From the IMG/VR virus record IMGVR_UViG_3300029258_001212, positions 1 through 64,000 of that record: 64,000 nt of DNA. One strand, given 5' to 3'. This DNA is from a virus. Below are positions 21,194-39,241 of this stretch, in pieces. The first letter of the stretch is position 1. The number at the start of each line of letters is the position of its first letter. The notes beneath the pieces are model-generated. The model ran no database searches. It had not been told where the DNA came from and was given only the letters and a program-made list of their open reading frames with translations. Both the position numbers and the translations under genes were made by a program.

Positions 21194-21772
21194 ATGAGCA
21201 CCATGGACGAGCTCCTCGAGGGCATTCGGCGCGAGGCGGGGCTGGTGGAGGCCAAGGCCACGCGGGAGGAGAAGCTCGCGGCGTGGCGCGCGGGAGCGCG
21301 TGAGCGGGCGCCCGGGGTGGTGCGCGCCATCCGGAGGCACCTAGCTGGGATGGAGTCGTGGTCCGGCTCGCGGTCTCTGGGAAGCGCCATTGTGAGCAAG
21401 GCCGGGGCGAAGCCAGCATTCCAACTGGTGAGCGATGGCCGTGGGTGGGAGGCGGACCATCGTGGCGTGCAACAGCTCCGGCACCCGGCCGTGGCCCACC
21501 TCACGGACCTGGACCGCTACCTGCACCATCAGGACTTTGCCGAGAGCCCCACCGGTGGCGCGTTCGGTTACCTTCGGTTCAACCGGGACGGCGTGGTCTA
21601 CTACTCGGAGGCCATCGGTGGCCGTGGGGGGCCCCTGGTGGTGAGCGTGTGGGGCCCTGGTGACGCTGACCCGCCCACCGTGGCCCGGCGCCTCGGGGCA
21701 TCCGCGGGCTCGGTGGAGGACACCCTGAGAGCGTGGATTCCCGGGAGCAAGAAGCGGCCCTGGCGGACCTGA
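21194..21772 (+). CDS. Putative capsid-internal cargo protein with leader
   Basis: MSTMDELLEGIRREAGLVE|AKA. Confidence 0.7.
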   Translation: MSTMDELLEGIRREAGLVEAKATREEKLAAWRAGARERAPGVVRAIRRHLAGMESWSGSRSLGSAIVSKAGAKPAFQLVSDGRGWEADHRGVQQLRHPAVAHLTDLDRYLHHQDFAESPTGGAFGYLRFNRDGVVYYSEAIGGRGGPLVVSVWGPGDADPPTVARRLGASAGSVEDTLRAWIPGSKKRPWRT

Positions 21773-21985
21773 CACTCGCCCCCGCGAAAAATGCGGATCG
21801 AATGGCTCAGGTTTTTCCGGCGGCAAAAAATCGTAAACCGGGTCCAAGTGTGCGGGCGGCGGCTCGGCCTGCCAGGTGTCGAGTTGATTCGAATCCGTGG
21901 CCAGGTGTCCGTGATGTAGGACACGAAGGCTTCCCCGTTGGGATCGCCTCTGGTATGGTAATGGGCAATCCCGAGGAGGAAGTCC

Positions 21986-22591
21986 ATGAGCCAGAATCTG
22001 ATCGAATCCATCCGGAGCCAGGCGGGCTTGAGCGAAGCCAAGGGCCTCACCGAAAGCGCCGGCAGGAGCATTGCCAGGAAGCTGGCAACCATTGGCGCTG
22101 GCGCCCTGGACGGCGCAGCCAAGAAGATGGGCCTCAAGCTGTCCCCCGGGCAGCTTGGGAAAATCTTTCAGGCCACCATGGCTGCCGTGATGCAAGAGTT
22201 ACCAGCAGCGGCCGGGCGCTCAGTGGGGACATTCCGCGAGGGTGTGGACACCGAGCTCGAGGCGGACCTGGTGGAAGATGTGCGCCAGGCGGCGGGGCTC
22301 ATCGAGGCGATGGCCAGCCACAACAAGGAGGGCCTCAAGTTCACCATTCAGACCGCCAGCGGCAAGAAGTACACCGGCATGGTCCAGGGCTCCGGTGGCA
22401 CGATCAAGGAGCTCAAGCGCCTCAAGGCTGCCATCCGCATGGCCACCGATGGGCAGGACTTCGAGGACCGACTGAACATCTATTCGCCCAAACCGCTGCA
22501 CGTGAAGGTCTACCGCGGCTCGGACACCGGCTACGGTTCCAAGTTCGACGTGGTGAACCTCGCTGGCGCGAAGATCCTCGCCGCGAAGTAG
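21986..22591 (+). CDS. Putative capsid-internal cargo protein, two modules
   Basis: MSQNLIESIRSQAGLSE|AKGLTE|S and internal DLVEDVRQAAGLIE|A. Confidence 0.75.
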   Translation: MSQNLIESIRSQAGLSEAKGLTESAGRSIARKLATIGAGALDGAAKKMGLKLSPGQLGKIFQATMAAVMQELPAAAGRSVGTFREGVDTELEADLVEDVRQAAGLIEAMASHNKEGLKFTIQTASGKKYTGMVQGSGGTIKELKRLKAAIRMATDGQDFEDRLNIYSPKPLHVKVYRGSDTGYGSKFDVVNLAGAKILAAK

Positions 22592-22598
22592 GAGCGCC

Positions 22599-22898
22599 AT
22601 GAACATCACCGAGGAGATTCGCCGGGCAGCCGGACTCGAGGAGAGCGACTCGTTTCCGGACCAGCGCCGGGACCAGTGGGACGAGACGATCAACAAGCTG
22701 GTCACCGTCAACCTCCCCGCGGCCGTCAAGAACCTCACCGCAAGCCACAAGGCTCTCATGGCCAAGCTGGCGCAGTCCGGCTACGGCACCCCCGACTCGC
22801 AAAAGGCGATCAAGGACGTGTTCAACCAGGCAAACAACGCCATCAGGAAGCTGTCCAACACGGCGGCTCGGATGGAGGCCCTGGCGAAAAAGAAGTAG
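22599..22898 (+). CDS. Putative capsid-internal cargo protein
   Basis: MNITEEIRRAAGLEE|S followed by a basic helical domain. Confidence 0.75.
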   Translation: MNITEEIRRAAGLEESDSFPDQRRDQWDETINKLVTVNLPAAVKNLTASHKALMAKLAQSGYGTPDSQKAIKDVFNQANNAIRKLSNTAARMEALAKKK

Positions 22899-22908
22899 GA
22901 GCTCACCC

Positions 22909-24633
22909 ATGAACATCCTCGAGGACATTCGCTCCGCGGCCGGTCTCACCGAGTCCAAGCGCAAGCGCCGATTCGGAGACCTACAGCGGGACGCGAGCAA
23001 CGTGGCGGCCCTGCAAACCAAGCTGGCGCAGCTCAAGTCCAAGACGGGCGTGGACACCTCGAGCCGGGCGTTCAAGGCCGGCGTGGCCACGGCCAAGGTG
23101 GACATGCGGCGAGGCGGCGCCAAGCTCGCAGTCCAGGTGCCACAGAAGTCCGACAACAAGGACTGGCGTGATGGCTACCTGTCCGCGCTACCCCTCGAGG
23201 TGGCCATCCAGGCCAGGCGGCGCCTCGGGGAGTCCACCGAGCTCGAGGAGGCCAAGGCCAGGCGGTACACGGGTGACCTACAGGCGGCTTACAGCCGGCT
23301 CAAGCGGCACGCCCACATGCCCCCTCTGGTTATCCAGAAGTACGGCGGCAAGCTCTCTGGTGCTCCCATGTTCGGGCTCCAGGACAAGCAAGGCGAATGG
23401 GTGAGCGACGGGCGCACCAAGGTGCTGTTCAATGACCGCAAGGACGCGGAGCGTTTCCATGTCAGGGCCAACTCGCTGGCCATGCAGGCGTATGCTCCAC
23501 GCGAGTCCACCGAGCTCGAGGAGTCCAAAGGTGCCGACTTCGGTGAGAAGCTCAAGGAGAAGCTCAAGGGCACCGGTTCCTGGAAGTACCAGGACACCGC
23601 CGGCCCGATGAGCTACGCCCTCAAGTGCGACGACGTGGGCAACAAGGGCGACGAGGTGCGCCGCAAGGTCAAGCGGTTCCTCCTGAGCCAGGGCTTCAAG
23701 CTCGCCAAGACGACTGGCAAGCCGGACGGTTTCGAGTGGGGTGAGCCCTACCGTCAGATCTACAAGCGGGACCGGGACGAGGTGAGCATCGAATCGTCCA
23801 CCCCGTTCAAGGGGATTCGGATCATCTACTCTCGGAATACTCAACTCCGTGGGCCCGAAGGCCCCGGCAAGCCCCGCGCCCCCAGGCGCGAGTTCACCGG
23901 CCAAGGGGCACTGTTCGGGGAAAGCCGGCCCCTGGTGGAACCGGACGTGGCGTTCGCCATGGCGCTGGCCAAGGCGATCAAGCGGTACGGCCGGTTCAAG
24001 GTGGAGCCGGGCAAGGGCGGCCAAGGCATGGTGCTGTCCAAGGACGAGGTGGGGCGCCCCCACGAGTGCCGGAAGGCCATCATCGACTGGCTCAAGCGCA
24101 AGGGGTTCACCGAGGCGGCGTTCAAGCCGGGCGGCTGGGAGCATCGCAACCGGTGGATCTACCGCAAGGGCAATGCCCAGGTGGAGATCGCTCACCAGGC
24201 CATCTACGATTCCATGACGGTCACCATCAGCCCCGGGGCCGGCGGCTCCGAGGCCCGGCGGCCGGACCCGATCCAGACCGGCATGTTCGGAGAGTCCACC
24301 ACGAACCGGCTCGAGCGGCTCCTCGAGGCCGTCAAGCTGCACCTCCCCTCGGGGGCAGCCCACCAGATCAAAACCAACCCCCTCGAGTACATCACCACGG
24401 CGGCCATGGACGCCCAGGTGGACCTGCGTGGCGCGGACTCCCTGGCGGACCTACTCGGACGCATGGACCCCCCGCCCCCGCGGGCGGCGATGATCGATGC
24501 TCGGAACGCAGCCGAGCTGGTGGGCAAGGCCCGCGCGGGCGCATGGCGCGCGAAAGGGCTCCTCAAGGACCTGGTGCGCCAGCTCCAGAGCCGGCCATCA
24601 GCCCGGGCCATGGCCCTCGAGGACAGCGAGTAG
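22909..24633 (+). CDS. Putative cargo polyprotein (~5 modules)
   Basis: MNILEDIRSAAGLTE|S; internal linkers ESTELEE|A, ESTELEE|S, LFGESRPLVE, MFGESTTNRLERLLE|A. Confidence 0.75.
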   Translation: MNILEDIRSAAGLTESKRKRRFGDLQRDASNVAALQTKLAQLKSKTGVDTSSRAFKAGVATAKVDMRRGGAKLAVQVPQKSDNKDWRDGYLSALPLEVAIQARRRLGESTELEEAKARRYTGDLQAAYSRLKRHAHMPPLVIQKYGGKLSGAPMFGLQDKQGEWVSDGRTKVLFNDRKDAERFHVRANSLAMQAYAPRESTELEESKGADFGEKLKEKLKGTGSWKYQDTAGPMSYALKCDDVGNKGDEVRRKVKRFLLSQGFKLAKTTGKPDGFEWGEPYRQIYKRDRDEVSIESSTPFKGIRIIYSRNTQLRGPEGPGKPRAPRREFTGQGALFGESRPLVEPDVAFAMALAKAIKRYGRFKVEPGKGGQGMVLSKDEVGRPHECRKAIIDWLKRKGFTEAAFKPGGWEHRNRWIYRKGNAQVEIAHQAIYDSMTVTISPGAGGSEARRPDPIQTGMFGESTTNRLERLLEAVKLHLPSGAAHQIKTNPLEYITTAAMDAQVDLRGADSLADLLGRMDPPPPRAAMIDARNAAELVGKARAGAWRAKGLLKDLVRQLQSRPSARAMALEDSE

Positions 24634-24634: not shown

Positions 24635-25870
24635 ATGAACAAGGCCGTCTACAAACAGCGATACCCGTTAATACTCCTCGAGGAGCTTGCAGAGCTGATG
24701 GAGGGGCTTGGCGGGCCAGACCCGCAAGACATGATGAAGTCCCTCAACTCCCTGGCGAAGTACAACGGGGGCAAATTCAAGTCCCCGGCCCAGGCAAAAT
24801 TTCTCTACCGCAAGCTCCAGGACCGATGGTTCAAACCGAATTCACTGGTGAAGCAGTGGGCCCGGCCGTACCTCAAGGGCCCAAACGACATGGCCGTCAT
24901 GGTGACGGACAGGATCCAAGGCTTTGGCACACGGACGGCAAGCAAGGTCCGCTATTACGGCTTTGCCTTCGTGGTGGACGGCGGAGGCGTGGTGGCCCGG
25001 GCCAAGCTCAAGGTGCGTGCCGGCCGGGGCAAGGAGGCGGACTCGCATCACGGCGGCGAGGTGATCGGTGTTACCCAGACCACCTTCGAGCGCGATGGTG
25101 ATGCGCCTACCCTGTACGATGCCCACGGTGAGCGGAAGGCCAAGGAGGCGCGAGCTCAAAAGAACGCTCCGCTGATTTCCAAGATCCAAGCGATTTCCAC
25201 CTACCAGGACGATGACTTCCTCCAGAGCATCGTGGCGCAGCTCCAGACTGGAGCCACGTTGTCCCCCGGCCAGGAGCGTGTGCTCGCGCAAAAGATGCCC
25301 TATCAGATGAGCTCCAGGGACAAGTACAAGGAGCTCTGGGCAGAGAGTGAAAAGATCCTGGCTCGCATCGCCAAGGAGGTAGCGCAAGGCATGGCTGTGG
25401 TGGCCAAGTCTGACAGCGTGCCCAAGCGGGACAAGGAATCCTCGCAGGTCTACGGGCAGGGCATCCTGGATGGGTGGAGGCTATTCAAAAAGCGGCCCAC
25501 CAAGACGGGGGAGATCGGTGAGACGAGCTCCCTGTCCGGGTTTGTAGGTGATCTGGCTGGATGGGATGAGCAGAAGCAAGGAAGGGCAGGCGGAGGGTAT
25601 TGGACCCTGGCCTATCTTGGGGCGCTTTTTCACCTGGCAACCAAGGGATCAAAGGCGCCAAAGTGGGCCACGAAAATGGCCCGCGGCGGGGAAATGCTGG
25701 CCAAGGAGCTCAAGAAGATCCCGGCCGGCGCCGCCAAACGCGATTACGTGAGCTTCTACTCAGGGGCAGATGACGATCCGTTCGCTGAATTCGAGGACGA
25801 TGATCAGCACCACGTAGGGCAAGGCGTGGACCATGATCGCCTGGTGTCCAAGGTGCTCAACAGGGACTGA
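24635..25870 (+). CDS. Putative cargo protein
   Basis: LLEELAELME|G leader, Lys-rich body. Confidence 0.7.
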   Translation: MNKAVYKQRYPLILLEELAELMEGLGGPDPQDMMKSLNSLAKYNGGKFKSPAQAKFLYRKLQDRWFKPNSLVKQWARPYLKGPNDMAVMVTDRIQGFGTRTASKVRYYGFAFVVDGGGVVARAKLKVRAGRGKEADSHHGGEVIGVTQTTFERDGDAPTLYDAHGERKAKEARAQKNAPLISKIQAISTYQDDDFLQSIVAQLQTGATLSPGQERVLAQKMPYQMSSRDKYKELWAESEKILARIAKEVAQGMAVVAKSDSVPKRDKESSQVYGQGILDGWRLFKKRPTKTGEIGETSSLSGFVGDLAGWDEQKQGRAGGGYWTLAYLGALFHLATKGSKAPKWATKMARGGEMLAKELKKIPAGAAKRDYVSFYSGADDDPFAEFEDDDQHHVGQGVDHDRLVSKVLNRD

Positions 25871-25873: not shown

Positions 25874-27217
25874 ATGAAGCAACTTCTCGAGGAGCTCGCA
25901 GAGCTAGTGGAGGCGGCCAACGGGCTCATGAAGTACACCGGCCCCACGTGGGACGTGCAGCGCGCAGCGCGGGAGCTCCAGCGGTTCGATTTCATCGCCT
26001 CCTTCGTGGCTCGGATGACCAGGCGCAAGGCGGGCCGCGCCACCGTCAATGGGATGCAGGTGAAGCGGGTGAAGGGCAAGTGGGTCTACGGCTTCCCTCC
26101 CGAGCTGTGGAATCCCCCCGCCCGGGACGCGGCGGCCCTCTATGACACCATCCGGCGCAGCCCTCTCAACTACTACGTGCGCCAGGCAGAGGATCTCCGG
26201 GACGAGCTCCTGAGCGAGGGGCACCTGGTGGAGGCGCGCATCCGTCTCAACAAGACGGAGCAGAAGATCATGAAGCAGCTCCTGAACCCTGCCAGGGGCT
26301 ACTACACGGCGGAGGCGTGGTCTTACAATGGGCCACGGTCTGCCCACGGAACACGAGGTGGCAGCCGGGATTACAACGCTTGCAAGTCCTTGGTGGATAA
26401 AGGGCTGGCCGTTCTCAGGAGCGCGGACGGCTATCGCGTGCCCAGAGAACCAGGGTACATGGCGCACGTTCAAAGCATTGCGATTGAGCTCGCCCCTGGT
26501 GCCAAGGAGCTCCTGGGCGAAGCGAGCCAGATCGGTCTCGACTTCGCGGCCAGGACGAGCAAGCGCAAGCCGGCGAAACCCCGGCGCACCCGCGGGAAAG
26601 GCGGCCTGGACCCGGACACCATCGTCAAGATCTTGGACGTGGTGGACACTCGTGAGTACGAAGAGATCGATGACCGCTGGGTGCCGATCAAAGGCTCGGG
26701 CACCGAGAGCTGGTGCGCCAGGTGCGGGCGCCCCCACGAAGTCCACGCCACCGTGGAGCTCGCGGACAAGCGCACGGCCGTGGTGGGAACGAGCTGCATG
26801 AAGGGCAGCTCCCTGGAGCGCGAAGCCAAGGCAGGGGCCAGCGCGGCGAAGACCATCGCCAAGTGGGAGCGCGAGCTCGCGGTCAAGCGGGAACAGGCCA
26901 AGAAGTACGCCACGATCAAGGCCCAGGTGGACAAGATGCGCCCCCCGCCTGTGGAGGTGAAGCCCTCCGGCGGGAAGTACGGCACCAACTGGAAGGTGGT
27001 CTGCGGAGACGCCTACGTGTACTCGCGCCAGCGCACCCCAGAGGACGCCCTCAAGGATGGGAAGTTCGGGGTGGAGCGGGAGTGGAGGCGAGGCCGGATG
27101 AACGAGCGCGGAGCGACCCTGAAAATGGCGGCTGCCAAGGAGTGGGTGGACGTGCTCGAGCGCAAGCTCAAGGCCAAGAAAAAGGCCCTCGAGGCCCTCT
27201 TGGCCAAGCGCGCCTGA
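25874..27217 (+). CDS. Putative cargo polyprotein (wHTH-like and Zn-finger modules)
   Basis: MKQLLEELAELVE|A; DELLSEGHLVE|A; ELLGE|A; CARCGR...VGTSC. Confidence 0.7.
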   Translation: MKQLLEELAELVEAANGLMKYTGPTWDVQRAARELQRFDFIASFVARMTRRKAGRATVNGMQVKRVKGKWVYGFPPELWNPPARDAAALYDTIRRSPLNYYVRQAEDLRDELLSEGHLVEARIRLNKTEQKIMKQLLNPARGYYTAEAWSYNGPRSAHGTRGGSRDYNACKSLVDKGLAVLRSADGYRVPREPGYMAHVQSIAIELAPGAKELLGEASQIGLDFAARTSKRKPAKPRRTRGKGGLDPDTIVKILDVVDTREYEEIDDRWVPIKGSGTESWCARCGRPHEVHATVELADKRTAVVGTSCMKGSSLEREAKAGASAAKTIAKWERELAVKREQAKKYATIKAQVDKMRPPPVEVKPSGGKYGTNWKVVCGDAYVYSRQRTPEDALKDGKFGVEREWRRGRMNERGATLKMAAAKEWVDVLERKLKAKKKALEALLAKRA

Positions 27218-27398: not shown

Positions 27399-27872
27399 AT
27401 GAACCGGACCCTGACCCTCATCCTGGTGGCGCTCCTGGCCATCGCCTGGCTCCTTACTGGCGGCGGCTGCAAGCGGTGTGACGTGTTCGGAGGCACCCAG
27501 GAATCCAAGGACAAACCCTACCGCGGGGACCCGGCCCAGGCGAAACCCCACCAAACCGTGGTCAAGAAGCTGTGGATCTTGCCCGGCCAGTGCGACAACA
27601 CCGGCTGCACCTACTTCGTGACCGTGACCGTCTGGCTCCACAACCCCACGGCCAAGGCCGTCACCGGGGACGTGACGTGCCACCTGAAGTTCGATGGCGG
27701 CAGCCACACGGACGGGGACACCACCGTGAGCTCGGAGTACACGGCTTCCACCAACTCCCGAAAGGGGGTGACCGTCAAGCCGGGGAGCTCCAAGGAAGTC
27801 AAGATCCAGCACAACGTCTCGGCCTCGAGGCCCACCGAGCTGGTGCCCGACTGCAACACCGTGTTCCGATGA
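27399..27872 (+). CDS. Exported/lipoprotein-like beta-rich protein
   Basis: Hydrophobic N-terminus ending LTGGGC. Confidence 0.6.
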   Translation: MNRTLTLILVALLAIAWLLTGGGCKRCDVFGGTQESKDKPYRGDPAQAKPHQTVVKKLWILPGQCDNTGCTYFVTVTVWLHNPTAKAVTGDVTCHLKFDGGSHTDGDTTVSSEYTASTNSRKGVTVKPGSSKEVKIQHNVSASRPTELVPDCNTVFR

Positions 27873-28462
27873 AGCGCCTCACCATGCTCCTGGCCGGGGC
27901 CGCGGTGGCCCTGGCGGCGTGCGGCTGCCCGAAGCTGGTCAAGCCCTACAGCGCCTTCCTGTCCAGCCCCACCAGCCACAAGATGCCCCCGTGCAAACAG
28001 TGGCGCGCCACCCCCAAGGGCACCCCCATCTGGACCCCCGCGGACCAGGACACCGAGGCGTTCCGGGCCCGGGTGGACACCCTGGTGGACCGCCTCGAGG
28101 CGTGCCTGGTGGCGGCCGGGGAGCTCAAGGAGATCCGACGCCGGAGCTTCGCCGTCATGGTGCCCTCTGACTGGTACGTGTCCAAGTGCTCCGGGGAGCA
28201 ACTCATCCCCTCGCTCGCCAGGTGTGAGCTCTGCCGGGCCAAGGGGCTCGAGATCAAGGACGAGTGCTGTGGGCTTCGCACGCCTACGCCCGCGTGCCCG
28301 TGCGTGTGTAACTTCCGGGCGACGGTCCAGTGGGGACGCATCGTGGTGACAGCTCCGAACCTCAAGCTGTTCAAGGCCGAGCTCGCCAGGATGGTGCTCT
28401 ACCCGAAGCACAACAACCCCTGGGTCACGCCGGCCGTTGCCGCGTGCGTGCGCCCCGAGTAG
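27869..28462 (+). CDS. Cys-rich putative lipoprotein
   Basis: MKRLTMLLAGAAVALAAC lipobox. Confidence 0.65.
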   Translation: MKRLTMLLAGAAVALAACGCPKLVKPYSAFLSSPTSHKMPPCKQWRATPKGTPIWTPADQDTEAFRARVDTLVDRLEACLVAAGELKEIRRRSFAVMVPSDWYVSKCSGEQLIPSLARCELCRAKGLEIKDECCGLRTPTPACPCVCNFRATVQWGRIVVTAPNLKLFKAELARMVLYPKHNNPWVTPAVAACVRPE

Positions 28463-28907: not shown

Positions 28908-28914
28908 CCCATCG

Positions 28915-28985
28915 GACACCCTCTTGACTCTTACTCTCCAAAGGGAGAGATAAGGTTAATTAAGAAGAAGCAACAGGCGTGCCAA
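28915..28985 (-). repeat. Conserved ~70 bp element copy 2 (reverse orientation)
   Basis: Reverse complement TTGGCACGCCTGTTGCTTCTTCTTAATTAACCTTATCTCTCCCTTTGGAGAGTAAGAGTCAAGAGGGTGTCC. Confidence 0.9.
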
Positions 28986-29076: not shown

Positions 29077-29448
29077 ATGCCCACCGAGACCGGAAGAGAC
29101 CTGATCGAATCCATCCGCTCCCAGCTCGGACTCGAGCCCGAGGAGACCAATGAGCCCGCGGAGGGCTTCGATGCCTGGCTCCAGGAGTACGAGCCCGAGA
29201 TGTTCGGGGAGGACGAGGAGCTCGAGGAGGGGCGCAACCCCACGCGGGACAAGTTGAGCAGCCTGGCCCTTCGGTCTAGCTTCGTTGCCACCCAGGCCCA
29301 GGCTTTGAGCAAGTGGGCGGAGGAGTACATGCGGAAGGATCCGTCCCTGTACGCCGGCAAGGAAGCGGCCATCAAAAAGATGCTCAAGGCTGCCCAGGAT
29401 GCGTACAAGATCCTCGAGCCCGCCCTTGGCGAGCTCAAGCGCCGCTAG
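29077..29448 (+). CDS. Putative cargo protein with long acidic leader
   Basis: DLIESIRSQLGLE...EELEE|G. Confidence 0.7.
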   Translation: MPTETGRDLIESIRSQLGLEPEETNEPAEGFDAWLQEYEPEMFGEDEELEEGRNPTRDKLSSLALRSSFVATQAQALSKWAEEYMRKDPSLYAGKEAAIKKMLKAAQDAYKILEPALGELKRR

Positions 29449-29457: not shown

Positions 29458-30276
29458 ATGCCCCTCAAGCCCAAGGACAAGAAAGTCATTGCCGCGTTTG
29501 CGGACAAGAAGCCCCTCGAGGGCAAGCTCCTCACAAGTGACGGCAAGACCCTCGAGAAGCTCGGCATGGGCCGCCAGAAGATCGCCTGGTGGGAGGGCCA
29601 CTACGTCAAGGTGTTCCCCACCCTGCCCCACGTGAAGTCCGATGAGGTGATCCTCCGGGCGCTTCGCAGGGCCATTCCGAAAAACTGGCTCAAGGAAGGC
29701 TCCGAGAGTGGCATCGAAGAGAAGCTACGCAATCTCCTCGGTGAGCTCCGCGAGGGGCACGACGTGGAGATGGATCCAGCGGACGAGACCGAAGCCGTCC
29801 TGGACGAGGCCACGGCTGGCTCATTGCGTGCCAGGCGCGAAGCCATGATGGTGGACTTCCTCGAGGAGGCGGCGCGCCGGCTCCAGGGTCCGTTATCCAG
29901 TGCTGCGAAGCTCTCCCTGGCGAAGTACAAGTGGGGGGTGAAGGGGAAGATCCTCCGAGTGCGCGCGAGCGGGCGCTACGGTGGCAGCTACACCATGGCC
30001 GTGGAGCTCCAGTGGTGGGACCGTGAGCCGGTGCTCAAGTACCGTGCCACCGGGAAGACCATGAAGGGGAAAAGCATCTACACGACGGGCGAGCAAGCCA
30101 TGTCCGATGACAGCACCCCCGCGGACATTGCCGGGCAGATCGGCACCTTCGTGACCATCGTGGACACCGAGATGATCGAAGGCTACACCACCGGCGCCCT
30201 TCAGATGTACGGCGACAAGAAGACCGGCCGGGCGCCCAAGGACAGTTTTCAAATCCGCGGTGGCAAGTACCGGTAG
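29458..30276 (+). CDS. Putative cargo polyprotein
   Basis: Internal LKE|G...KLRNLLGELRE|G...VLDE|A linker between two basic modules. Confidence 0.7.
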   Translation: MPLKPKDKKVIAAFADKKPLEGKLLTSDGKTLEKLGMGRQKIAWWEGHYVKVFPTLPHVKSDEVILRALRRAIPKNWLKEGSESGIEEKLRNLLGELREGHDVEMDPADETEAVLDEATAGSLRARREAMMVDFLEEAARRLQGPLSSAAKLSLAKYKWGVKGKILRVRASGRYGGSYTMAVELQWWDREPVLKYRATGKTMKGKSIYTTGEQAMSDDSTPADIAGQIGTFVTIVDTEMIEGYTTGALQMYGDKKTGRAPKDSFQIRGGKYR

Positions 30277-30285: not shown

Positions 30286-31308
30286 ATGAACACCGACAAG
30301 CTACGCAACCTCCTCGGTGAGCTCCGGAGTGGAGATCTCGAGGAAGGCATGGCCAAGTATTCCGCCTACTGGGTGAAGCAGCTCCCCACGGACCTGATGA
30401 CCCAGACCATGCGGACCATCACGGAGCTCGGCGGCGAGACGGATCGGTTCGGTGTGACGATGCGCGACGATGCGCCGATGACCACTGGGAAGATCCACAT
30501 CCATGAGGCCAGCCTGGCCTACCAGGTGCAGAAGAACCCGAACGCGAAGCTCCTCAAGGCGTTCATGCCCGAGCTCCGCAAGTGGGGGCTCAAGAAAACC
30601 GAATCCAAGGCCCGCGGCAAGCGCCGCGAGGTGCGATTCGAGGGGGCGAACAAGGAGCGCGTCAAGATCACTTTCGAGTACGAGCCCAAGCGCGAGTGGG
30701 GCTGGGTGAACGTGCAGAGCTACGATGCTCGCAGCCGGCTCACCGAGGACACTCTCGAGGAGCGTGCGCCCCTTCCGCGCCCCGGAGACCCCTTTGAGGC
30801 AGACGGGCAGACCTTCAAGATCGTCCGCGTCTATCCCACACGGGACTGGGCGCAAGGGCCGATTTCAGTGCGCCTATGGCGCCTCCTTTCGAGGAACGGC
30901 GCAGCGGCCATCGGGAAGCAGATCAAAGGCACCCAGGACAAGGGCCACTACCTCATCCTGTTCAACAAGCATGGCGACCTGGAGGGCCACCCCGTCTGGA
31001 TGAAGCCGGCCCAGGTGAAGCGTGCCATGAGGTATGAGTCCGTGGAGCTGGACAGCGAGCTCCTGGACGAGGCGAAGTACCCCACCACGGCGGCGGGAGA
31101 CCTACTCGAGAAGATGGCAAACCGGGTTATCCCCATGGTGGCCAGGAGTGTGGGCGCGGTGGATGATGTGCTCCCCTACTTGAGCGGCCAGAAGTCCAAG
31201 GAGATGGTGGCCAAAGCCAGGCAGGCGGCAACGCTGATCACCCAGGCGAACACCAAGCTCTACGAGGCACACGGGCTCCTGAACGAGATCAAGCGGGCAG
31301 GCAAGTAG
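30286..31308 (+). CDS. Putative cargo polyprotein (3 modules)
   Basis: KLRNLLGELRSGDLEE|G; LTEDTLEE|R; ESVELDSELLDE|A. Confidence 0.7.
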   Translation: MNTDKLRNLLGELRSGDLEEGMAKYSAYWVKQLPTDLMTQTMRTITELGGETDRFGVTMRDDAPMTTGKIHIHEASLAYQVQKNPNAKLLKAFMPELRKWGLKKTESKARGKRREVRFEGANKERVKITFEYEPKREWGWVNVQSYDARSRLTEDTLEERAPLPRPGDPFEADGQTFKIVRVYPTRDWAQGPISVRLWRLLSRNGAAAIGKQIKGTQDKGHYLILFNKHGDLEGHPVWMKPAQVKRAMRYESVELDSELLDEAKYPTTAAGDLLEKMANRVIPMVARSVGAVDDVLPYLSGQKSKEMVAKARQAATLITQANTKLYEAHGLLNEIKRAGK

Positions 31309-31317: not shown

Positions 31318-32244
31318 ATGAAACAGCGTTCGATCAAGGACAAGCTCAACAGCCTGCACGTATCCATTCAGCAAATGGAGACGGACCCGGACTACCGAAA
31401 GGGGCAGCCGGTAAGCGGGCGCATCGCCGGCAACTACGTGGACAACCTCCACGCTCACGTGCGCGAGCTCAAGGACGTGTCCAAGGAGGTTGGGCAGCTC
31501 GAGTGGGCGGCCGGGATGCTGGAAAAGGCGGCCAGCAAGGGCGATGTGTCCGCCCAGCACTTCGGCCAGGTGATCAAGATGCTCCGCGCCATCGAAAAAG
31601 GGATCAAGCGGGACGCGCGCAAGGTGCGCGAGGACACCGATGCTCTGGGCGAGCTCCTCGAGGGGCTCCAAGTGGAGGCCGGCCTGGTGGAAGCCAAGGC
31701 AGTCCGAGGCAAGGCGCAGAAGTTCGTGATGAAGGCTTTGCAGGACCTTGGCGGCGAGGCGGAGCTGACCAGCCTGGCTCGCCACCCCGGAGGACGCGGC
31801 ATTCACTTCGCCCAGATCATGAAGTCCGTGGAGGCCCTCGCCAAAGTCGGCCACGTGAGCTTCAATCCGCAAACCCAGATGATCAAGCTCCGCCAGGACG
31901 AGAGCATCACCGAGGCCCGAAAGGCCGTGAAGCGGTCCAAGTCCAGGGCCATCGTGGACGTGATGGACAAGGTGAAGGACTACCTTACCGGGGCCGGGTG
32001 GAAGCATCGCCAGATGGGCAACGCGGACACCTACACGCGCCGGGTGTCCGACAAGGAAAAGGCGATCAACTTCGTGACGGCGGCCCTCAAGGCCAACGGT
32101 CTGGTGGGCTACCACAACAAGGTGGAGCAAGACGGGCTCACCGAGTATCACTTCGAGCACCGGCGCTACCGCAAGCTGGTGGCCACGCTCGAGGACTGGC
32201 ACGACACCCCTGAGATGGTGCTGAGAGTACAGGACCTGGCGTAG
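31318..32244 (+). CDS. Putative cargo polyprotein (includes wHTH-like module)
   Basis: DALGELLEGLQVEAGLVE|AKA; ESITE|A. Confidence 0.7.
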   Translation: MKQRSIKDKLNSLHVSIQQMETDPDYRKGQPVSGRIAGNYVDNLHAHVRELKDVSKEVGQLEWAAGMLEKAASKGDVSAQHFGQVIKMLRAIEKGIKRDARKVREDTDALGELLEGLQVEAGLVEAKAVRGKAQKFVMKALQDLGGEAELTSLARHPGGRGIHFAQIMKSVEALAKVGHVSFNPQTQMIKLRQDESITEARKAVKRSKSRAIVDVMDKVKDYLTGAGWKHRQMGNADTYTRRVSDKEKAINFVTAALKANGLVGYHNKVEQDGLTEYHFEHRRYRKLVATLEDWHDTPEMVLRVQDLA

Positions 32245-32245: not shown

Positions 32246-32608
32246 ATGAGCTGGTTTCTCGAGACATACCGCGAGCTCTCTGGCCTGATGGAGGCCACGG
32301 CGTTCCGCGGCCTGAGCAAGGCAGAGCTCAAGGAGCTCATGGCCGAGCTCAAGTCCAAGTTCGGTCCGCTCCGGGCCAAGTATTGGACCACACCGAAGCA
32401 CGCCACCGGACAGGTAACCCTGAAGCCCTACAGGCGGGACCAGGACGCCTGGGGCGAAGACCTGGACCGATGGGTGCGCCTGGTGGACCATCTCATCGCC
32501 TGGGGCGCATTCAGCCCCACGGTGAGCCTCGAGAAGCAACGCGGCGAGCCTGGCGTGTGGGGTAACCAGTTCCCCCTCGCTGGATTGACGTTCTATAGGA
32601 GAGCCTGA
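32246..32608 (+). CDS. Putative cargo protein
   Basis: MSWFLETYRELSGLME|A leader. Confidence 0.7.
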   Translation: MSWFLETYRELSGLMEATAFRGLSKAELKELMAELKSKFGPLRAKYWTTPKHATGQVTLKPYRRDQDAWGEDLDRWVRLVDHLIAWGAFSPTVSLEKQRGEPGVWGNQFPLAGLTFYRRA

Positions 32609-33519
32609 TGCGGAAAAATCATCCCTATCGTGCCACCATGCTGGCCATCAGCCGGCGGATGCAGCGCAGCGGCTACAGCGTGGCCTACACGAAGCATGGG
32701 GACCATGAGCTCGGGGTGCCGGACCCACCGGCCGGGGCGGCGTGGATCTCGTTCACCGAGAGCGAGGACTGCCAGGGCTTTGCCCATGCCCTCGGGTTGC
32801 TCGGGCTCGAGGAGTCCGTGAGCAAAAGCGGCCGGACATGCTTCGAGCTCCCGGACGGCGGCGCCGCGTGCGTGGTCGAGTCCGGTGACGGTACAGGGTA
32901 TCTGTACCTGAGCGAGCTGGGCCCGGTGGAGGAGACCAGGGCGGCCAAGCTGGGCACCCTCCTAGAGACCATCCGCGCGCCGCGCGTCAGCGAGCCAGAT
33001 CCGCTCACCGAGGCCCGCGCGAGCCGGCCAGGGATGACCCAATTCCGCGATCTGACCCTCCGCAAAAAGGTGGTGGACCAGATCATGAAGGCCGTCATGC
33101 AGGACATTCCGATCATCCTCACCGGCCAGCCCGGGTCCGGGCGGATCATGATCGCCCGACGTATTGCCCAGATGGTGAAGGGGCCCCTCCGCGCTCCGCA
33201 CTACACGGTGAGCATGAAGGGCCTGACCGGGACGGTGCGGAACGGCCGTTACGTGGAAGGCGATCTCACCATGGCCAACCAGGGGGTGCTCCTGTTGGAC
33301 GAGGGGGCGGAGATGCGGCGGCCGGCCCTCGAGGCCATCGGCCAGGCGGTGCGCTTGAAGCAGGTGCAGCTCCCTGGGATGCAGGAGCCCCGCCAGGCGG
33401 ACTTCCACCTGGTGATGACGGCTCCGGATGCCTCCGGGGCCAAGCGCGCATTGAAGTTCATGGGGCTCACCAAGGTGGCCACCATTCACATTGCCAAGGG
33501 TGACTTGGCGGTCAAGTAG
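32608..33519 (+). CDS. Putative cargo polyprotein with degenerate ComM/YifB-like AAA+ module
   Basis: LGTLLETIR...PLTE|A then GQPGSGRI...PLRAPHYTVS...GDLTMANQGVLLLDE. Confidence 0.65.
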   Translation: MRKNHPYRATMLAISRRMQRSGYSVAYTKHGDHELGVPDPPAGAAWISFTESEDCQGFAHALGLLGLEESVSKSGRTCFELPDGGAACVVESGDGTGYLYLSELGPVEETRAAKLGTLLETIRAPRVSEPDPLTEARASRPGMTQFRDLTLRKKVVDQIMKAVMQDIPIILTGQPGSGRIMIARRIAQMVKGPLRAPHYTVSMKGLTGTVRNGRYVEGDLTMANQGVLLLDEGAEMRRPALEAIGQAVRLKQVQLPGMQEPRQADFHLVMTAPDASGAKRALKFMGLTKVATIHIAKGDLAVK

Positions 33520-33531: not shown

Positions 33532-34155
33532 ATGAGCATCAGAACCCAGAAGCTGGCCCGGCTACTCGAGCAGATCCGCGGCGGCTCGGACGAGCCCCTG
33601 GACGAGACCATGTACGCCATCGGGTCCGGCGGTCTCCGCAAGCTCGGCGGGATGACCATCTTCCCGAACCAGGTGTATTTCATGGGCGCCTCGAGCTCGC
33701 CCAGTGGCATTTTCGTGACCCGGGTGACGGACGATGCGGTGACCTACAAACAGCTCTATTCGATGGGCAAGGAGCAGCGCATTCAGCGCCCCATCGCGGA
33801 CGACTTGGTTCGCCAGGGCACCGAGACCTGGCTCAAGTCCGGTTACCAGAAGTACCAGCCGGAGCGAGCTCGCAAGCTCAAGGCTCTCCTGGCGGGCAAG
33901 AAGCAGCCCCCGGAGAAAGAGGAGGACTACGTGCGGTGGCGCGTGGAGGTGAAGGCGGTGAACCCGCCCACCGGCAAGATGACCAGGGAGACGGATCCCT
34001 GGTATCGCGCGGAGGAGTACGGCAACGTCGGCTCGCGCGAGGACCCGAAGCACGGCACCGTCTACGAGATCACCAGCGTGACCGGGAAGGCTCTCAAGGA
34101 GCTTCGCAAGGACAAAGCATTCAAGGTGCTCAAAGCCACCCGCGAGAAACGGTAG
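33532..34155 (+). CDS. Putative cargo protein
   Basis: KLARLLEQIRGGSDEPLDE|T leader. Confidence 0.7.
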   Translation: MSIRTQKLARLLEQIRGGSDEPLDETMYAIGSGGLRKLGGMTIFPNQVYFMGASSSPSGIFVTRVTDDAVTYKQLYSMGKEQRIQRPIADDLVRQGTETWLKSGYQKYQPERARKLKALLAGKKQPPEKEEDYVRWRVEVKAVNPPTGKMTRETDPWYRAEEYGNVGSREDPKHGTVYEITSVTGKALKELRKDKAFKVLKATREKR

Positions 34156-34164: not shown

Positions 34165-34824
34165 ATGACCCCGACCCAGTACATGCTCCCCGTCCCTTAC
34201 GAGACCATCGAAGTGGACGGCCAGGAGTGGGAGGTGGTGACCGCGGGAGCGGATGCCAAGTCCTACGTGGTGAGCCTCAAGAAGCCCGGCAAGGGTGGCA
34301 ACCTCTACTACCTCGAGCTGGACCTGGAGAGCGGGGAGCCGAAGGGGTCCCCGCGCAAGATTGGCAACATCGAAATGCTCGAGGGTGATGCCCTTGGTGG
34401 GCTCCTCGGGCAGCTCCGCGAGGAGTCCGGTTTGGCGGAGGCGCGCCCACGCCTTGCCGATCAGAGATCGGTGGTCAAGATCGGCCGCTCCGGGAAATCC
34501 TACAGCTACTTCTACCAGGGTTCCACGGCGGGGCGCTGGGATGAGCTCGAGGGGCTGGACGCCCAGGAGGTGTTTCGCAAGACGCTGGCCGTTCTCAAGA
34601 TGTACCCGCAGACCACGGTGCTCCTGCCCAACAGGTGGAGCTTCGGGCGGCGATCTGAAGCTGTGCGGAGCCAGCGCCTCCCCTTTGTGCTCCTGGCGAA
34701 GCAGGGGCAGGAGGTGGACGCCACCGACAGCCCAAAGGACTTCTGGACCGAATACGGGATGCAGCTCCTACGCGGCCAAGTGAAGCTCAAGCCGCGCGAG
34801 ACGCGCCCGGCGCCGGGGTGGTAG
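34165..34824 (+). CDS. Putative cargo polyprotein (2 modules)
   Basis: Internal DALGGLLGQLREESGLAE|A. Confidence 0.7.
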   Translation: MTPTQYMLPVPYETIEVDGQEWEVVTAGADAKSYVVSLKKPGKGGNLYYLELDLESGEPKGSPRKIGNIEMLEGDALGGLLGQLREESGLAEARPRLADQRSVVKIGRSGKSYSYFYQGSTAGRWDELEGLDAQEVFRKTLAVLKMYPQTTVLLPNRWSFGRRSEAVRSQRLPFVLLAKQGQEVDATDSPKDFWTEYGMQLLRGQVKLKPRETRPAPGW

Positions 34825-34826: not shown

Positions 34827-35726
34827 ATGAACCTCGAGGCGATCCAGGGGCTCCTCATGGAGCTCAGGTCCCAGGTGAGCCAGATCGGGCTCGACTTCAC
34901 TGGTGCGGCAGAGCGAAAGCGCGCCAGGCGCACCCGCACGCGCGTGCGACGTGTGCCCAACCCACGGAAGCCCCGGCGCCCGTCTCCGGCCCGGGCCGAA
35001 CCAGTGCCCCTCGAGCCCCCGCCAGAGCCAGCTACCCCACGGGTCAAGCTGGCTGACTTCCGGTTGCCACCTACGCGCAAGGAGGCCCACACCGGCGAGC
35101 TCCTGGGGCGCTGTATCGACTGCAAGCGCAAGCTGGCCAAGACGGCCGGCAAGGGCACGAAGTGGTGTCCACGGTGCAACAAGCTCCACCAGCAAAGCAT
35201 CCCGGTAGACCTGGGCAGCGGGGAGCGCAAGGTCAAGAAGCGGACCAGGTGCCCCACGTGCGGCGGTGTGAAGCGCAAGACGGACTACCAGTGCCAGAAG
35301 TGTTTTCAGGCCAGGCATACCCGGTTCGCCCAGATCGAACACATCGTCCAGGCGATCCGTGAGCTCGGCAGTCTGATCCTCGAGGCCAATGCCCAGCGGC
35401 GCGACCCGTGGGAGCTCATGCCGATCCTGGACCAGTGGCTCAAGGACAAGGGATGGCGCCGCAACACGAAGGCCCCTCACTGGGTGAAACGGGCCTGGTA
35501 TAAACCGGTCTACCGCGAGGCCAAGGGAGACCAGTGGGCGAACCTTCGGAGCGCCCTCCGCAAGCTCGCCCCGAAGCTGGGCGGCAAGTACATCGAACAG
35601 CCGGCGCTGGCGGACGAGGAGGACACCCTCCTGGTGACCGTGCCGGGCTACTTCACCATCACGGCCCAGGTGCCCAACGTCCAGTTCGGCGTGGCCAAGC
35701 TGTCCGTGACGACGCGCAAGAGGTGA
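34827..35726 (+). CDS. Putative cargo polyprotein with Zn-finger module
   Basis: LEAIQGLLMELRSQ leader; CIDC/CPRC/CPTC/CQKC; IRELGSLILE|A. Confidence 0.65.
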   Translation: MNLEAIQGLLMELRSQVSQIGLDFTGAAERKRARRTRTRVRRVPNPRKPRRPSPARAEPVPLEPPPEPATPRVKLADFRLPPTRKEAHTGELLGRCIDCKRKLAKTAGKGTKWCPRCNKLHQQSIPVDLGSGERKVKKRTRCPTCGGVKRKTDYQCQKCFQARHTRFAQIEHIVQAIRELGSLILEANAQRRDPWELMPILDQWLKDKGWRRNTKAPHWVKRAWYKPVYREAKGDQWANLRSALRKLAPKLGGKYIEQPALADEEDTLLVTVPGYFTITAQVPNVQFGVAKLSVTTRKR

Positions 35727-35730: not shown

Positions 35731-37983
35731 ATGAAAACGCTGGACAAGATCGCTCGCAACGACAAGACGGGGTTCATGAAGTGGTGGGGCGAGGTTGCCG
35801 GCCTACTGAACGGCACCATGGGCGCCAATCCGGGCTACTCCAAGATCAAGATGAGCGACACCATCGGGGTCAACGTGCCCACCGGTGTGATCTACGTTTC
35901 GCCCATGCGTAGCGGGAGCGACTTCCGCGCGGAGTCCTGGATCGACAGCGAGACCGAACAAGGACACAACGCCTTCAAGTGGCGTTCCAAGGGGCTCACT
36001 CCTCGCAAGGTGGCAGCCGACATTCAACGAAAGTGGGGAAAGCATCTCTGGGAGAACACGGACGAGCAACGGATGGGTGCCATCATGGGCGTGGTACTCG
36101 AGGAGTCGGACAATATTTTGTTCCACGCGGGGCTCCTCGGGGAGCGCCAGAAGCGGCCGGGGACGGGTGACTTCCCGGACGAGTCCAAGGTGCGTCAGGG
36201 TTCCTTCAAGATCGGCCAGGACTTCATGAAGCTGGTGAAGCAGGAGAAGCTCGACGGGCCTCACATGCTTCTGTTCAGGGAGGTGCGGGACCACATCAAC
36301 AAGATCCCCAGGGAGAAGCTCCCGGAGATCTGGGGCCTGGACAACATCCCGGATGCCCAGGACGAGATCGCCCGAGCTCCACGCAAGGCGTTCCAGGCGT
36401 TCCTGCGAAACGTCCACAAGGTGGACCGCAAGCTCGCCGGGTACATCCGGCGCATCGCGGACAACGTACCGCTGGTCTGGTACATGATCATGCAGAGGAT
36501 CAGCGGCAAGGACATGGCGGACATCATCCTGAACCGCTACTTCACAACCAAGAATTACTACGAGCCGTCGCAGCGTGTGAAGATGCGCGACAAGCGGCGC
36601 CGTAAGGCAAGCAAGATGCCCTCCGGCAGCCAGCCCGGACTGTTTCCCGAGGGGCAGGAGCTGGACGAGGGCATTATGAAAAAGCACGCGGGCCTCTACA
36701 AGGCGCCGGACCGGGGAAGCTCGCAGAGCTATGTGCTGGTGAAGCGTGGTTCCGAGGGCTATCTGAAAAAGTGGGCCGAGCGCCAAGGACTCGTGTTCCA
36801 CGGCGGCCACGGCCTGAGCGGGGAAAAGGGTTACTTCGAGGACCCGAACACCGGGAGCTACTACGTGCTGGGCACGGGCAACAAGCGCAGCCCGTTCGCC
36901 GCGAACGAGGATCAGGACTCCCTCGGTGAGCTCCTCGGTGAGCTCGAGGAGGCCAAGGGCAAGTGCGGCCGGAAGCCTCGAGGCGGTGGTGTCCAGGACG
37001 GCAAGGGCCCGCATGGGGCCGGGCGCGGGCGCGGGCGGATGGAGCTCGAGGACCAGGAGCTCGGGGAGGCGGCCAGCCCCGAGCAGCTCCACCAAGCCAA
37101 GATGATGATCATCAAGATGCTGGACCAGGCGGTCCGCAAGGCCATCGGTGGCAGCGTCAAGGGCTTCACCGGTGACAAGGGCGGTGCCGTCATGGGCCGG
37201 TGGGTCACGAAGTCCAAGCTCGGGGAGCACACAATGATCGTTCGCATCCCGCCCAGGATGACCGAATTCAGTGTGTCCACTTACACGAAGCACAAGAACG
37301 CCAACATCAAACCCAAGGTGCTGGACGAGACCATGGTGGACATGCGGAAGGTGTGGAAGGGGGACAAGAAGTACGATTGGCGCCCCATCACAGATCTGTT
37401 CAAGCAAGAGATCGCCACCGGCGGCAACCGCAACGTCGTGTCCGTGGAGGACCAGGACAACCTCGGTGAGCTCCTGGGCGAGCTCCGCCAGGCGTCCGGG
37501 CTCGAGGACCTGGACGAGGCGGCGCGCCCCAAGCTGATCAAGGGTGACACGGTGCCCAAGGACCTGGCGGCCCTGTGGCCAGTGCTCCGGCGGTTCGGCT
37601 TCAAGCGCCCCAAGCTCAAGCGGACGGTGGAGTACGAGGGCACGCCTCACCAGTACACCATGGTTATGCCGGCCAGCGGGATCTGGGAGCGCAGCGGGAG
37701 CCGCAAGAAGTCCGCGTTCACGTCCAAGGAACGCTGGGAACTCTCCAAGGCGATCAAGGAGTGGGCCGCGAAGCACGGATGGACCCACAAGATGGGTCCG
37801 CGGGGGTTCCACGGCAATGAAACGGACACCTTTGCGAAGATGCAGCCCAAGCTCCCGACCCACAAGGTGCCCAACGAAGCGCACCTCACCATGCGTACTT
37901 CCGGGCGCCTCAAGAGCGGTTACGCCCCCGGCGAGGACGTGCTCCAGAACGTCTACTTCAATCTCAGCTACGCCACCAGATAG
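35731..37983 (+). CDS. Large putative cargo polyprotein (~6 modules)
   Basis: Linkers VLEE|S...LLGE|R, QELDE|G, EDQDSLGELLGELEE|A, QELGE|A, EDQDNLGELLGELRQASGLEDLDE|A. Confidence 0.75.
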   Translation: MKTLDKIARNDKTGFMKWWGEVAGLLNGTMGANPGYSKIKMSDTIGVNVPTGVIYVSPMRSGSDFRAESWIDSETEQGHNAFKWRSKGLTPRKVAADIQRKWGKHLWENTDEQRMGAIMGVVLEESDNILFHAGLLGERQKRPGTGDFPDESKVRQGSFKIGQDFMKLVKQEKLDGPHMLLFREVRDHINKIPREKLPEIWGLDNIPDAQDEIARAPRKAFQAFLRNVHKVDRKLAGYIRRIADNVPLVWYMIMQRISGKDMADIILNRYFTTKNYYEPSQRVKMRDKRRRKASKMPSGSQPGLFPEGQELDEGIMKKHAGLYKAPDRGSSQSYVLVKRGSEGYLKKWAERQGLVFHGGHGLSGEKGYFEDPNTGSYYVLGTGNKRSPFAANEDQDSLGELLGELEEAKGKCGRKPRGGGVQDGKGPHGAGRGRGRMELEDQELGEAASPEQLHQAKMMIIKMLDQAVRKAIGGSVKGFTGDKGGAVMGRWVTKSKLGEHTMIVRIPPRMTEFSVSTYTKHKNANIKPKVLDETMVDMRKVWKGDKKYDWRPITDLFKQEIATGGNRNVVSVEDQDNLGELLGELRQASGLEDLDEAARPKLIKGDTVPKDLAALWPVLRRFGFKRPKLKRTVEYEGTPHQYTMVMPASGIWERSGSRKKSAFTSKERWELSKAIKEWAAKHGWTHKMGPRGFHGNETDTFAKMQPKLPTHKVPNEAHLTMRTSGRLKSGYAPGEDVLQNVYFNLSYATR

Positions 37984-38005
37984 CACTCCTCTGAGGCATA
38001 AGCCC

Positions 38006-38033
38006 TTGACAGGGCTTGTATCCCCTCCATATT
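38006..38033 (+). promoter_or_regulatory. Possible sigma70 promoter
   Basis: TTGACA-N16-CATATT upstream of 38093. Confidence 0.4.
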
Positions 38034-38092
38034 TCGGGCACGATAAGGGTAGTTAAGGGCAAGCAAGCGAAAGCGGCCCGACGAGGTGTACC

Positions 38093-38356
38093 ATGAGCTA
38101 CGCGGCGCAGTTGAAAGAGGAGGTTCGGATGCGGGCGGACGTGCCCACTGTCCGGCCGGCGGCCGGCGAGGACCGCGAGAGTGCCGTCTCGGCCCTCCGC
38201 GCCCTTGGGGCCCAGGCCACCCAGCTCGCAACTCAGCTCGAGCGAGGCCAGCTCTCCGAGGCCACGCTGGACGGCGTGTGGGAGCACATCAACGGTGCCA
38301 CCAGGGCGATGGTGGAGGCCACCCGTGCGGCCTTCGATGCCCAGCGGCGCAAGTAG
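38093..38356 (+). CDS. Small helical hypothetical protein
   Basis: RBS GAGGT, own promoter candidate. Confidence 0.6.
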   Translation: MSYAAQLKEEVRMRADVPTVRPAAGEDRESAVSALRALGAQATQLATQLERGQLSEATLDGVWEHINGATRAMVEATRAAFDAQRRK

Positions 38357-38366
38357 CACCTCAACC

Positions 38367-38435
38367 TTGGCACGGCTGTTGCTTCTTCTTAATTAACCTT
38401 ATCTCTCTCTGTTAGAGGAGAAGAGTCTTGAGGGT
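38367..38435 (+). repeat. Conserved ~70 bp element copy 3
   Basis: TTGGCACGGCTGTTGCTTCTTCTTAATTAACCTTATCTCTCTCTGTTAGAGGAGAAGAGTCTTGAGGGT (most diverged 3' half). Confidence 0.9.
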
Positions 38436-38474
38436 TTGATTTGCGGGCCGTGGTGGCCCGGGGAGATTGGAGCC

Positions 38475-38738
38475 ATGAAACAAGATCGGAAACCGAAGAT
38501 GATCGGGTGGGTGTTCCTGGTGTTCGGGGGCATGTTCCTGTTGGGGACGGTGCTGTTCGGAATCATGGACCGCACCATCATGGACAACATCGCTGCGGCC
38601 GTGTGCGCGTGCGGGATGGTGTTGTCGGTGGGGTTCTGGGCGCACGTGTGGGTGGCGCGCCAGCGGCTCCGCCAGAGCGAGCTCCTGGAGATCCGGCTGC
38701 AACAGCTCGGTGAGCACTGGAAGGCGAGCGCCCGGTAG
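38475..38738 (+). CDS. Two-TM membrane protein
   Basis: Two hydrophobic segments. Confidence 0.6.
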   Translation: MKQDRKPKMIGWVFLVFGGMFLLGTVLFGIMDRTIMDNIAAAVCACGMVLSVGFWAHVWVARQRLRQSELLEIRLQQLGEHWKASAR

Positions 38739-38803
38739 TGCTAGGATAGGGGCGCGAATCCAAGCAAGCCCCGGCCATCGTGCCGGCGAACAAGGAGGCA
38801 ACG

Positions 38804-39241
38804 ATGGATCGGCTAGACGCATTGCTCCAGGAGGAGCGGGGGCACCAGGGCCTGGTGGACCTTCCGGCCATTGGTGGTCCGGTGGTGGACGAGGGGGCAG
38901 ACCGGCACGCAGTCCATGAGCTGGAGCTCTATATCGACAACACTCACCAGCTCTACAAGGACAAGTGGGAAAACTTCTTCTCGAGTCTCACGCGCAAGGT
39001 GGCGGCCGGGAAGTATGATCGCAAGCGGGCGCTCAAGATGATGGGCTACCTGGTGGACCGCGCGGCCAAGGAGTACGCCAAGGAGTTCGGGGGCACTTGG
39101 AATCAGATCTTCTCGGTGCCCACCCGCAAGGCCGTGGCGGCGTCACAGGTGGAGGAGTTCGAAGATGTGGTGAAGGACTCTCCGGAGGACTTGGCCAAGT
39201 GGGTCCCCAAGAAGTACGCGAAGAACAAGCTCAAGATCTGA
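38804..39241 (+). CDS. Conserved phage protein (ELELYIDN...GKYD...YAKEF type) with acidic leader
   Basis: MDRLDALLQEE...VVDE|G followed by a motif common in phage proteins. Confidence 0.65.
   Translation: MDRLDALLQEERGHQGLVDLPAIGGPVVDEGADRHAVHELELYIDNTHQLYKDKWENFFSSLTRKVAAGKYDRKRALKMMGYLVDRAAKEYAKEFGGTWNQIFSVPTRKAVAASQVEEFEDVVKDSPEDLAKWVPKKYAKNKLKI

Follow-up and report, generated by a model that had tools for sequence, protein, structure and literature searches.

A block of about 17 genes at positions 21194-39241 of the window, which is the whole 64,000-nucleotide stretch analysed here and the first 64 kb of the complete phage genome IMGVR_UViG_3300029258_001212 (153,540 bp, direct terminal repeats, 64% G+C), encodes proteins that share a short acidic peptide segment. 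This segment is probably a tag of the T4 kind, combining capsid targeting with a protease site, and probably doubles as the joint that links the modules of cleavable cargo proteins. The block spans ~18 kb, or 12% of the genome, and comprises 21 open reading frames (ORFs), which like all real genes of the window lie on the + strand and are named below by their first nucleotide; the segment, a helix followed by Gly-Leu-x-Glu, occurs in 17 of the 19 ORFs that are not lipoprotein-like. The initial annotation, made from the sequence alone, had read the segment as an N-terminal leader that directs unrelated proteins into the prohead, is removed there by the prohead protease, and leaves the proteins to be injected with the DNA. 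That interpretation is partly supported. Its predictions held wherever sequence analysis could test them, whereas packaging, cleavage, injection and any anti-defence role are inferred; and because the segment is also an internal joint of multi-module proteins, the picture of an N-terminal leader is incomplete.

The tag is 15-20 residues long and consists of an acidic amphipathic helix plus G-L-x-E. Its consensus is hydrophobic-hydrophobic-Glu-x-Ile/Leu-Arg-x-x-Ala/Ser-Gly-Leu-x-Glu, followed by Ala or Ser and often by Lys. With gene starts set by AGGAG-type ribosome sites, a 17-residue profile found 10 copies in nine proteins, scoring 10-28 bits and all located at 21-38 kb; over the rest of the 153.5-kb genome the same profile scored <3 bits, and the best score in 20 shuffled genomes was 6.6 bits. 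With the variant forms L-L-G-E-L-R and L-L-E-E-L-A-E-L included, there are 19 copies in 17 ORFs, in line with the number of genes first proposed, and all eight examples quoted in the initial annotation are present in the genes to which it assigned them. The enrichment that it had put forward as a check was likewise found, the motif being confined to the array block and missing from the ORFs at 1-18 kb. When each protein in turn was left out and the helix half alone was used, 12 of the 19 copies were recovered at ≤0.7 expected decoy matches per genome. Scanning IMG/VR with a degenerate DNA pattern of the motif core gave mostly single chance matches. Eleven copies, in 11 ORFs, lie within ~15 residues of the N-terminus and finish in L/V/I/M-x-E or a close variant, as expected of a leader, but the other eight, in seven proteins, are internal.

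The coding DNA of the copies varies freely at synonymous sites, so that it is the peptide and not the DNA that is conserved, which rules out an explanation of the motif as a DNA repeat. The proteins themselves are basic, as first described from their Lys/Arg-rich bodies: their median isoelectric point (pI) is 9.6 against 5.3-6.5 elsewhere in the genome, and 79% of them have a pI >9 as opposed to 26-32% elsewhere. Composition predicts 10.8 occurrences of the tetrapeptide [LIVM]-x-E-[AS] in the array and 34 are present, versus 55 expected and 67 observed in the rest of the genome; this threefold excess in the array fits proteins that are made to be cut. G+C at third codon positions is 0.87, matching the most biased head genes, and the ratio of nonsynonymous to synonymous divergence (dN/dS) of array genes against a sister phage is 0.11-0.37, indicative of purifying selection and hence of working genes.

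The processing machinery that such a tag calls for is encoded nearby. The module 3' of the array is a T4-type head and tail module in which the portal protein (41092-42804, +; PF07230), the S77 (T4 gp21-type) prohead protease (45076..46644, +; 522 aa; PF03420, E=5e-20) and the gp23-type major capsid protein (46706..48205, +; PF07068) lie 2-9 kb downstream of the array, with the tail sheath gene further on at 61143-63353. The protease had been named from the sequence alone; alignment to T4 gp21 (PDB 5JBL) shows that its catalytic His (D-H-P) and Ser (S-S-R-G) are kept, and its own C-terminus carries a motif-like L-R-K-L-C-G-L-S-E/G with a site at residue 513 (a slash marks the predicted cut). 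The capsid protein has the maturation site that had been predicted for it, I-I-S-E/A after Glu66 (nucleotides 46892-46903), and hydrophobic-x-Glu followed by Ala, Ser or Asp occupies this position in the window phage and six relatives. The end of the tag therefore fits the same gp21-type rule as the capsid maturation site. Between portal and protease lie a 310-aa protein with no assigned role (ORF 43015) and a highly charged, scaffold-like protein (43993..45066, +), which its position and composition make a candidate docking partner for the tag. Complex prediction for protease residues 1-200 (5-row alignment) together with a 40-residue tag region (8 rows) gave a score of 0.00, which speaks neither for nor against their interaction. 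No listed phage has a capsid protein more than ~33% identical to this one, which places the window phage in a distant T4-like lineage.

Tagged genes keep company with head genes in other phages as well. In a relative with 72% capsid identity (L008), about nine small genes interspersed with those for head and neck are tagged; they lie at 6559-9073 and 9858-11368, around the head-tail adaptor gene, and bear two tag types, R-F-N-x-L-L-E-A-I...L-D-E and L-M-E-E-M-R-E-Q-A-G-L-x-E; a relative at 51% identity carries a more diverged leader on two genes. This setting bears on the idea that the tag belongs to some process outside the capsid, as a docking helix for a chaperone or modifying enzyme, an oligomerisation helix or a linker helix, and resembles a protease site incidentally. 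Hydrophobic-x-Glu is a loose rule, which leaves room for such a coincidence, but the motif resembles the processing sites of both the capsid protein and the protease itself, and the tagged genes stand beside or inside head modules in the window phage and in L008. Nor is there a radical-SAM enzyme or other obvious partner: the S77 protease is the only partner seen that fits the motif end, and the radical SAM family PF04055 is absent from the complete genome by a search whose controls were positive. We consider a role outside the capsid quite unlikely.

Comparison with the sister phage, IMG/VR genome G002, shows how the array evolves. Its capsid protein is 99%, its protease 99% and its portal 96% identical to those of the window phage, whereas the arrays align in blocks only; identity is 75-97% over the parts that align, and at the DNA level the blocks are 71-92% identical versus 91-96% for structural genes. 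Of 18 homology breakpoints between the two phages, eight fall within 30 nucleotides of a motif copy, where 2.3 are expected (p=0.0008). The scaffold, protease and capsid genes differ from those of G002 by a synonymous divergence (dS) of 0.05-0.09, the array genes 24635-25870 and 35731-37983 by one of 0.48-0.69, and this unevenness suggests that the array is in part of mosaic origin.

The individual exchanges are of several kinds. The first array gene (21194..21772, +; 192 aa), whose N-terminal tag spans residues 4-19 with a predicted cut following Glu19, is missing from G002. ORF 21986 (21986..22591, +; 201 aa) is tagged twice, N-terminally at residues 3-17 and internally at 93-107, and its halves occur in G002 in separate genes behind different partners. 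The tag of ORF 22599 (22599..22898, +; 99 aa; tag 1-15) is the same in G002 and the body is different. Conversely, the 574-aa multi-module protein of ORF 22909 (22909..24633, +; tag 1-15), whose acidic joints are of the type G-E-S-T-E-L-E-E/(A or S), has its body kept there with the tag replaced and one module, bounded by two such joints, missing. A module between two cutting-type sites is also missing from the G002 counterpart of ORF 25874 (25874..27217, +), a 447-aa three-module protein with a variant tag at residues 4-13, a second site, L-V-E/A, near residue 120 and a C-terminal zinc-binding module at 240-447. The C-terminal half of ORF 29077 (29077..29448, +; 123 aa; tag 7-23) differs in G002, and different genes take the place of ORF 31318 (31318..32244, +; 308 aa; internal tag 111-127).

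Two neighbouring genes illustrate the passage of the tag between terminal and internal positions. ORF 29458 (29458..30276, +; 272 aa) has its tag internally, at residue 93, and in G002, where the upstream module is missing, the same tag is N-terminal; the N-terminal tag of ORF 30286 (30286..31308, +; 340 aa; tag 6-20) is internal in G002, behind a 150-aa module. ORF 35731 (35731..37983, +) encodes a 750-aa multi-module protein jointed at residues 401 and 581; its homologue in a third relative, P0005, has lost one module, carries two in permuted order and has a different module in place of another, all of these changes falling at joints. Orthologues of ORF 33532 (33532..34155, +; 207 aa; degenerate tag 8-25) carry a canonical tag, a variant or none: three have the canonical form, which validates the degenerate copy in the window phage, and the most distant lacks the tag altogether. 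That the tag is portable, as had been proposed, is thus borne out by relatives that exchange bodies behind it, by an orthologue that does without it, and by the presence behind it here of a widespread family that otherwise occurs mostly solo.

Such exchange might suggest that the segment is mainly a recombination joint for in-frame module exchange and has no targeting role of its own. The concentration of breakpoints at the motif and the permutation of modules at joints are what this explanation leads one to expect, but synonymous divergence leaves little DNA homology at the motif while the peptide is conserved, and the conserved Arg, Gly-Leu and Glu point to peptide recognition. Moreover, 11 copies lie so close to the N-terminus that a joint there would be needless. 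A joint pure and simple is therefore highly improbable, and we return to a targeting and cleavage tag, which, being common to the modules, is also the site where relatives exchange, delete, permute and fuse them.

The remaining tagged genes follow the same plan. ORF 24635 (24635..25870, +; 411 aa) carries a variant of the type L-L-E-E-L-A-E-L-x-E at residues 14-23 that is weak alone. ORF 32246 (32246..32608, +; 120 aa) is tagged at 2-18, and ORF 34165 (34165..34824, +; 219 aa) internally, at 78-94. In ORF 32608 (32608..33519, +; 303 aa) a tag variant at residue 118 precedes an AAA+ domain of the Mg-chelatase/ComM-like type. ORF 34827 (34827..35726, +; 299 aa) is weakly tagged, with an N-terminal variant at 6-24 followed by a Cys-rich zinc-ribbon region and a small module that recurs in the array, and the last member, ORF 38804 (38804..39241, +; 145 aa), has a weak N-terminal variant at 4-20. 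ORFs 38093 and 38475, inside the array interval, are without the motif.

The bodies that the tag carries are nearly all orphans. All-against-all BLASTP of the array proteins aligned the motif and nothing else, in agreement with the initial description of the bodies as unrelated; that description fails for a small alpha+beta module, with a helix ending W/F-L-x-x-x-G-W/F, which recurs in at least four array proteins (copies at 23632-23883, 24043-24288, 31936-32181, 35394-35660 and 37717-37980) and in the metagenomic relative P0007, so that the bodies are not all unrelated. An AlphaFold2 (AF2) model of this module had a predicted local distance difference test (pLDDT) score of 67 and matched no fold, and a profile built from it found only its own seeds; a HicA-like identity was rejected, there being no Pfam match at E values up to 10. 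Searches of all array ORFs against Pfam and PHROGs gave no match except Mg-chelatase/AAA+ in ORF 32608 and found no peptidase family inside any of them. The Walker A motif of ORF 32608 is degenerate, with Arg in place of the usual Lys and the next Ser/Thr lost. We considered this protein as an injected sigma-54 activator and dropped the idea, given that degenerate motif, a weak Sigma54_activat match and best matches to Mg-chelatase/ComM-like proteins. An atlas search gave only weak, Alba-like leads.

The C-terminal module of ORF 25874 (window 26591-27214) has the most informative relatives. Four Cys/His positions are invariant in a family of >450 sequence clusters for which Pfam and PHROGs have no model, and most members are solo, untagged metagenomic proteins of ~200 aa. 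Some are instead embedded in proteins of 900-2600 aa alongside LPD1, Zeta-toxin, ParB, GNAT or 2H-ligase domains. Its AF2 model is confident (pLDDT 95.7), and comparison with solved folds by Foldseek and VIA-align gave no convincing match: the best Z score, 6.5, covered a helical hairpin only, and the best VIA rows include CT398/HP0958 zinc-ribbon coiled-coil proteins, also at a Z of 6.5, below significance.

These features help to weigh another possibility, that the proteins are targeted and cut as proposed but are structural contents of the head, either components of the core or scaffold or DNA-condensing basic proteins that form an inner-body-like mass, serving assembly or DNA packing. The uniformly basic bodies would suit this purpose, as would the lack of any body matching a known enzyme or anti-defence family. 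Precedents exist, in that T4 IPIII influences head assembly and is found with scaffold on co-purification (PMC9026906), and the heads of phiKZ and SPN3US contain large masses of processed internal proteins (PMC5694885). On the other side, the genes turn over between phages whose capsid and protease are 99% identical, as essential structural parts rarely do; one module is common to polyvalent conflict proteins, and an AAA+ domain is among the cargo. We judge a structural function unlikely, and delivered cargo the better account.

In the mechanism that we favour, the 18-kb block would encode the protein cargo that a distant T4-like myophage carries inside its head. During prohead assembly the acidic amphipathic helix would dock each protein on the scaffolding core, as does the T4 capsid-targeting sequence, and the S77 (gp21-type) prohead protease would then cut at the hydrophobic-x-Glu end. 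Cutting would free basic mature modules that are kept with the packaged DNA and may leave with it at infection. With segments also placed between modules, a single chain could bring in several pieces of cargo, to be separated by cutting once in the head.

Several points weigh against this account. The phage is uncultured and known here from its genes alone. Hydrophobic-x-Glu is a short rule that is frequent by chance, and four copies, those of ORFs 24635, 34827 and 38804 and the one at residue 401 of ORF 35731, are weak when taken alone. For targeting by internal tags, T4 offers no direct precedent. The T4 tag, which we take to be 10 residues long, is not alike, the tag here being longer and without evident similarity to it. 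The AAA+ domain is the sole body match to a family of known function, and with no other such match it is a guess that the cargo serves host takeover or counter-defence.

A wider proposal, which we regard as possible but hold tentatively, is that the segment is three devices in one: capsid address, head-protease site and in-frame exchange point, which together would let this phage clade assemble, re-sort and deliver a large ready-made protein arsenal, singly or as cleavable chains. If so, solo proteins from elsewhere could be captured by placement behind the tag.

The principle is known from T4; what is new is its scale, the internal joints and the shuffling at those joints. The T4 capsid targeting sequence was reportedly characterised by Mullaney and Black in 1996, and variation of internal-protein genes among T-even phages is said to have been described by Repoila et al. 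in 1994. The internal proteins of T4 are directed to the core by propeptides 10-19 residues long, and gp21 cuts after L/I-x-E; these proteins are basic and ejected, vary between T-even phages and, the tag excepted, are poorly conserved (PMC9026906, PMC3012670). The array resembles T4 IPI, IPII, IPIII and Alt in placing a short N-terminal propeptide that ends in hydrophobic-x-Glu on unrelated, mostly basic proteins, and resembles T4 also in its S77 protease family, in the gp20, gp21 and gp23 head gene set and in cargo that is poorly conserved between relatives. It differs in having ~17 genes that make up 12% of the genome rather than three or four small ones, in using the tag internally as a joint between modules, and in belonging to a phage that is only a distant relative of T4. 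As with the variable genes of T-even phages, relatives differ in which basic proteins have a targeting-like leader, but here the exchange maps to the tag and comes with module fusions, permutations and deletions within single ORFs.

The group of phiKZ, 201phi2-1 and SPN3US likewise has many head-internal proteins and a gp21-related protease that cuts after Glu, with several sites per propeptide (PMC5694885, PMC9026906). Their sites are S/A/G-x-E or A-x-E, their propeptides exceed 100 residues and their proteins form paralogous families such as PF12699, whereas here a short tag is common to unrelated bodies. None of the inner-body families of phiKZ and SPN3US (e.g., PF12699) was found among the array ORFs with Pfam or PHROGs.

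Polyvalent proteins of phages and conjugative elements, which are proposed to accompany invading DNA into the cell and to undergo cleavage into separate units (Iyer et al. 2017, PMC5512222), provide a further parallel. Like them, ORFs 22909, 25874 and 35731 combine several unrelated modules in one polypeptide, and module 240-447 of ORF 25874 is homologous to a domain in the LPD1-bearing giants. Unlike them, the array proteins contain no embedded peptidase (MPTase or similar) that we could find, so that cutting would fall to the head protease at the tag-like joints, and most of the cargo consists of separate tagged genes. Our survey of the literature found no description of large arrays or joint-linked chains of proteins tagged in this way.

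Some other features of the region stand apart from these subjects. Two untagged, lipoprotein-like ORFs (27399-27872 and 27869-28462, +) interrupt the array and are outside the system; they overlap, each has a signal peptide and a lipobox-like Cys, and the sister phage has both, at 97% and 93% identity. A spanin-like or exclusion function is possible for them. An element of ~70 bp whose dispersed copies cross-match in blastn against the sister phage occurs at 1028-1107, 28913-28985, 38355-38435, 49597-49680 and 53359-53437, and the second and third of these copies flank the second half of the array. A scan for promoters and terminators found no more sites than in shuffled sequence. Outside the array interval, inspection by eye picked out two possible extra members: 51977..52897 (+), which is basic and has an N-terminus ending L-V-T-E/A-K, and 56062..56652 (+), with helix-S-G-L-T-R-E near the N-terminus. 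Both lie 3' of the head and neck genes together with ORFs 53443-54147 and 54144-54560, which are also basic with loosely tag-like N-termini, and all four score below profile significance. They may be further members of the array.

To our knowledge, proteins that phages inject are poorly known outside T4, P1, P22, N4 and the phiKZ group. A tag that is both recognisable and portable would let the injected proteome of uncultured T4-like phages be read from sequence and would point to new candidate counter-defence and takeover proteins, nearly all of which are orphans here. It would also provide a longer and more specific address than that of T4 for packaging foreign proteins in capsids, and chains built on joints would connect T4-style targeting with the polyvalent-protein idea.

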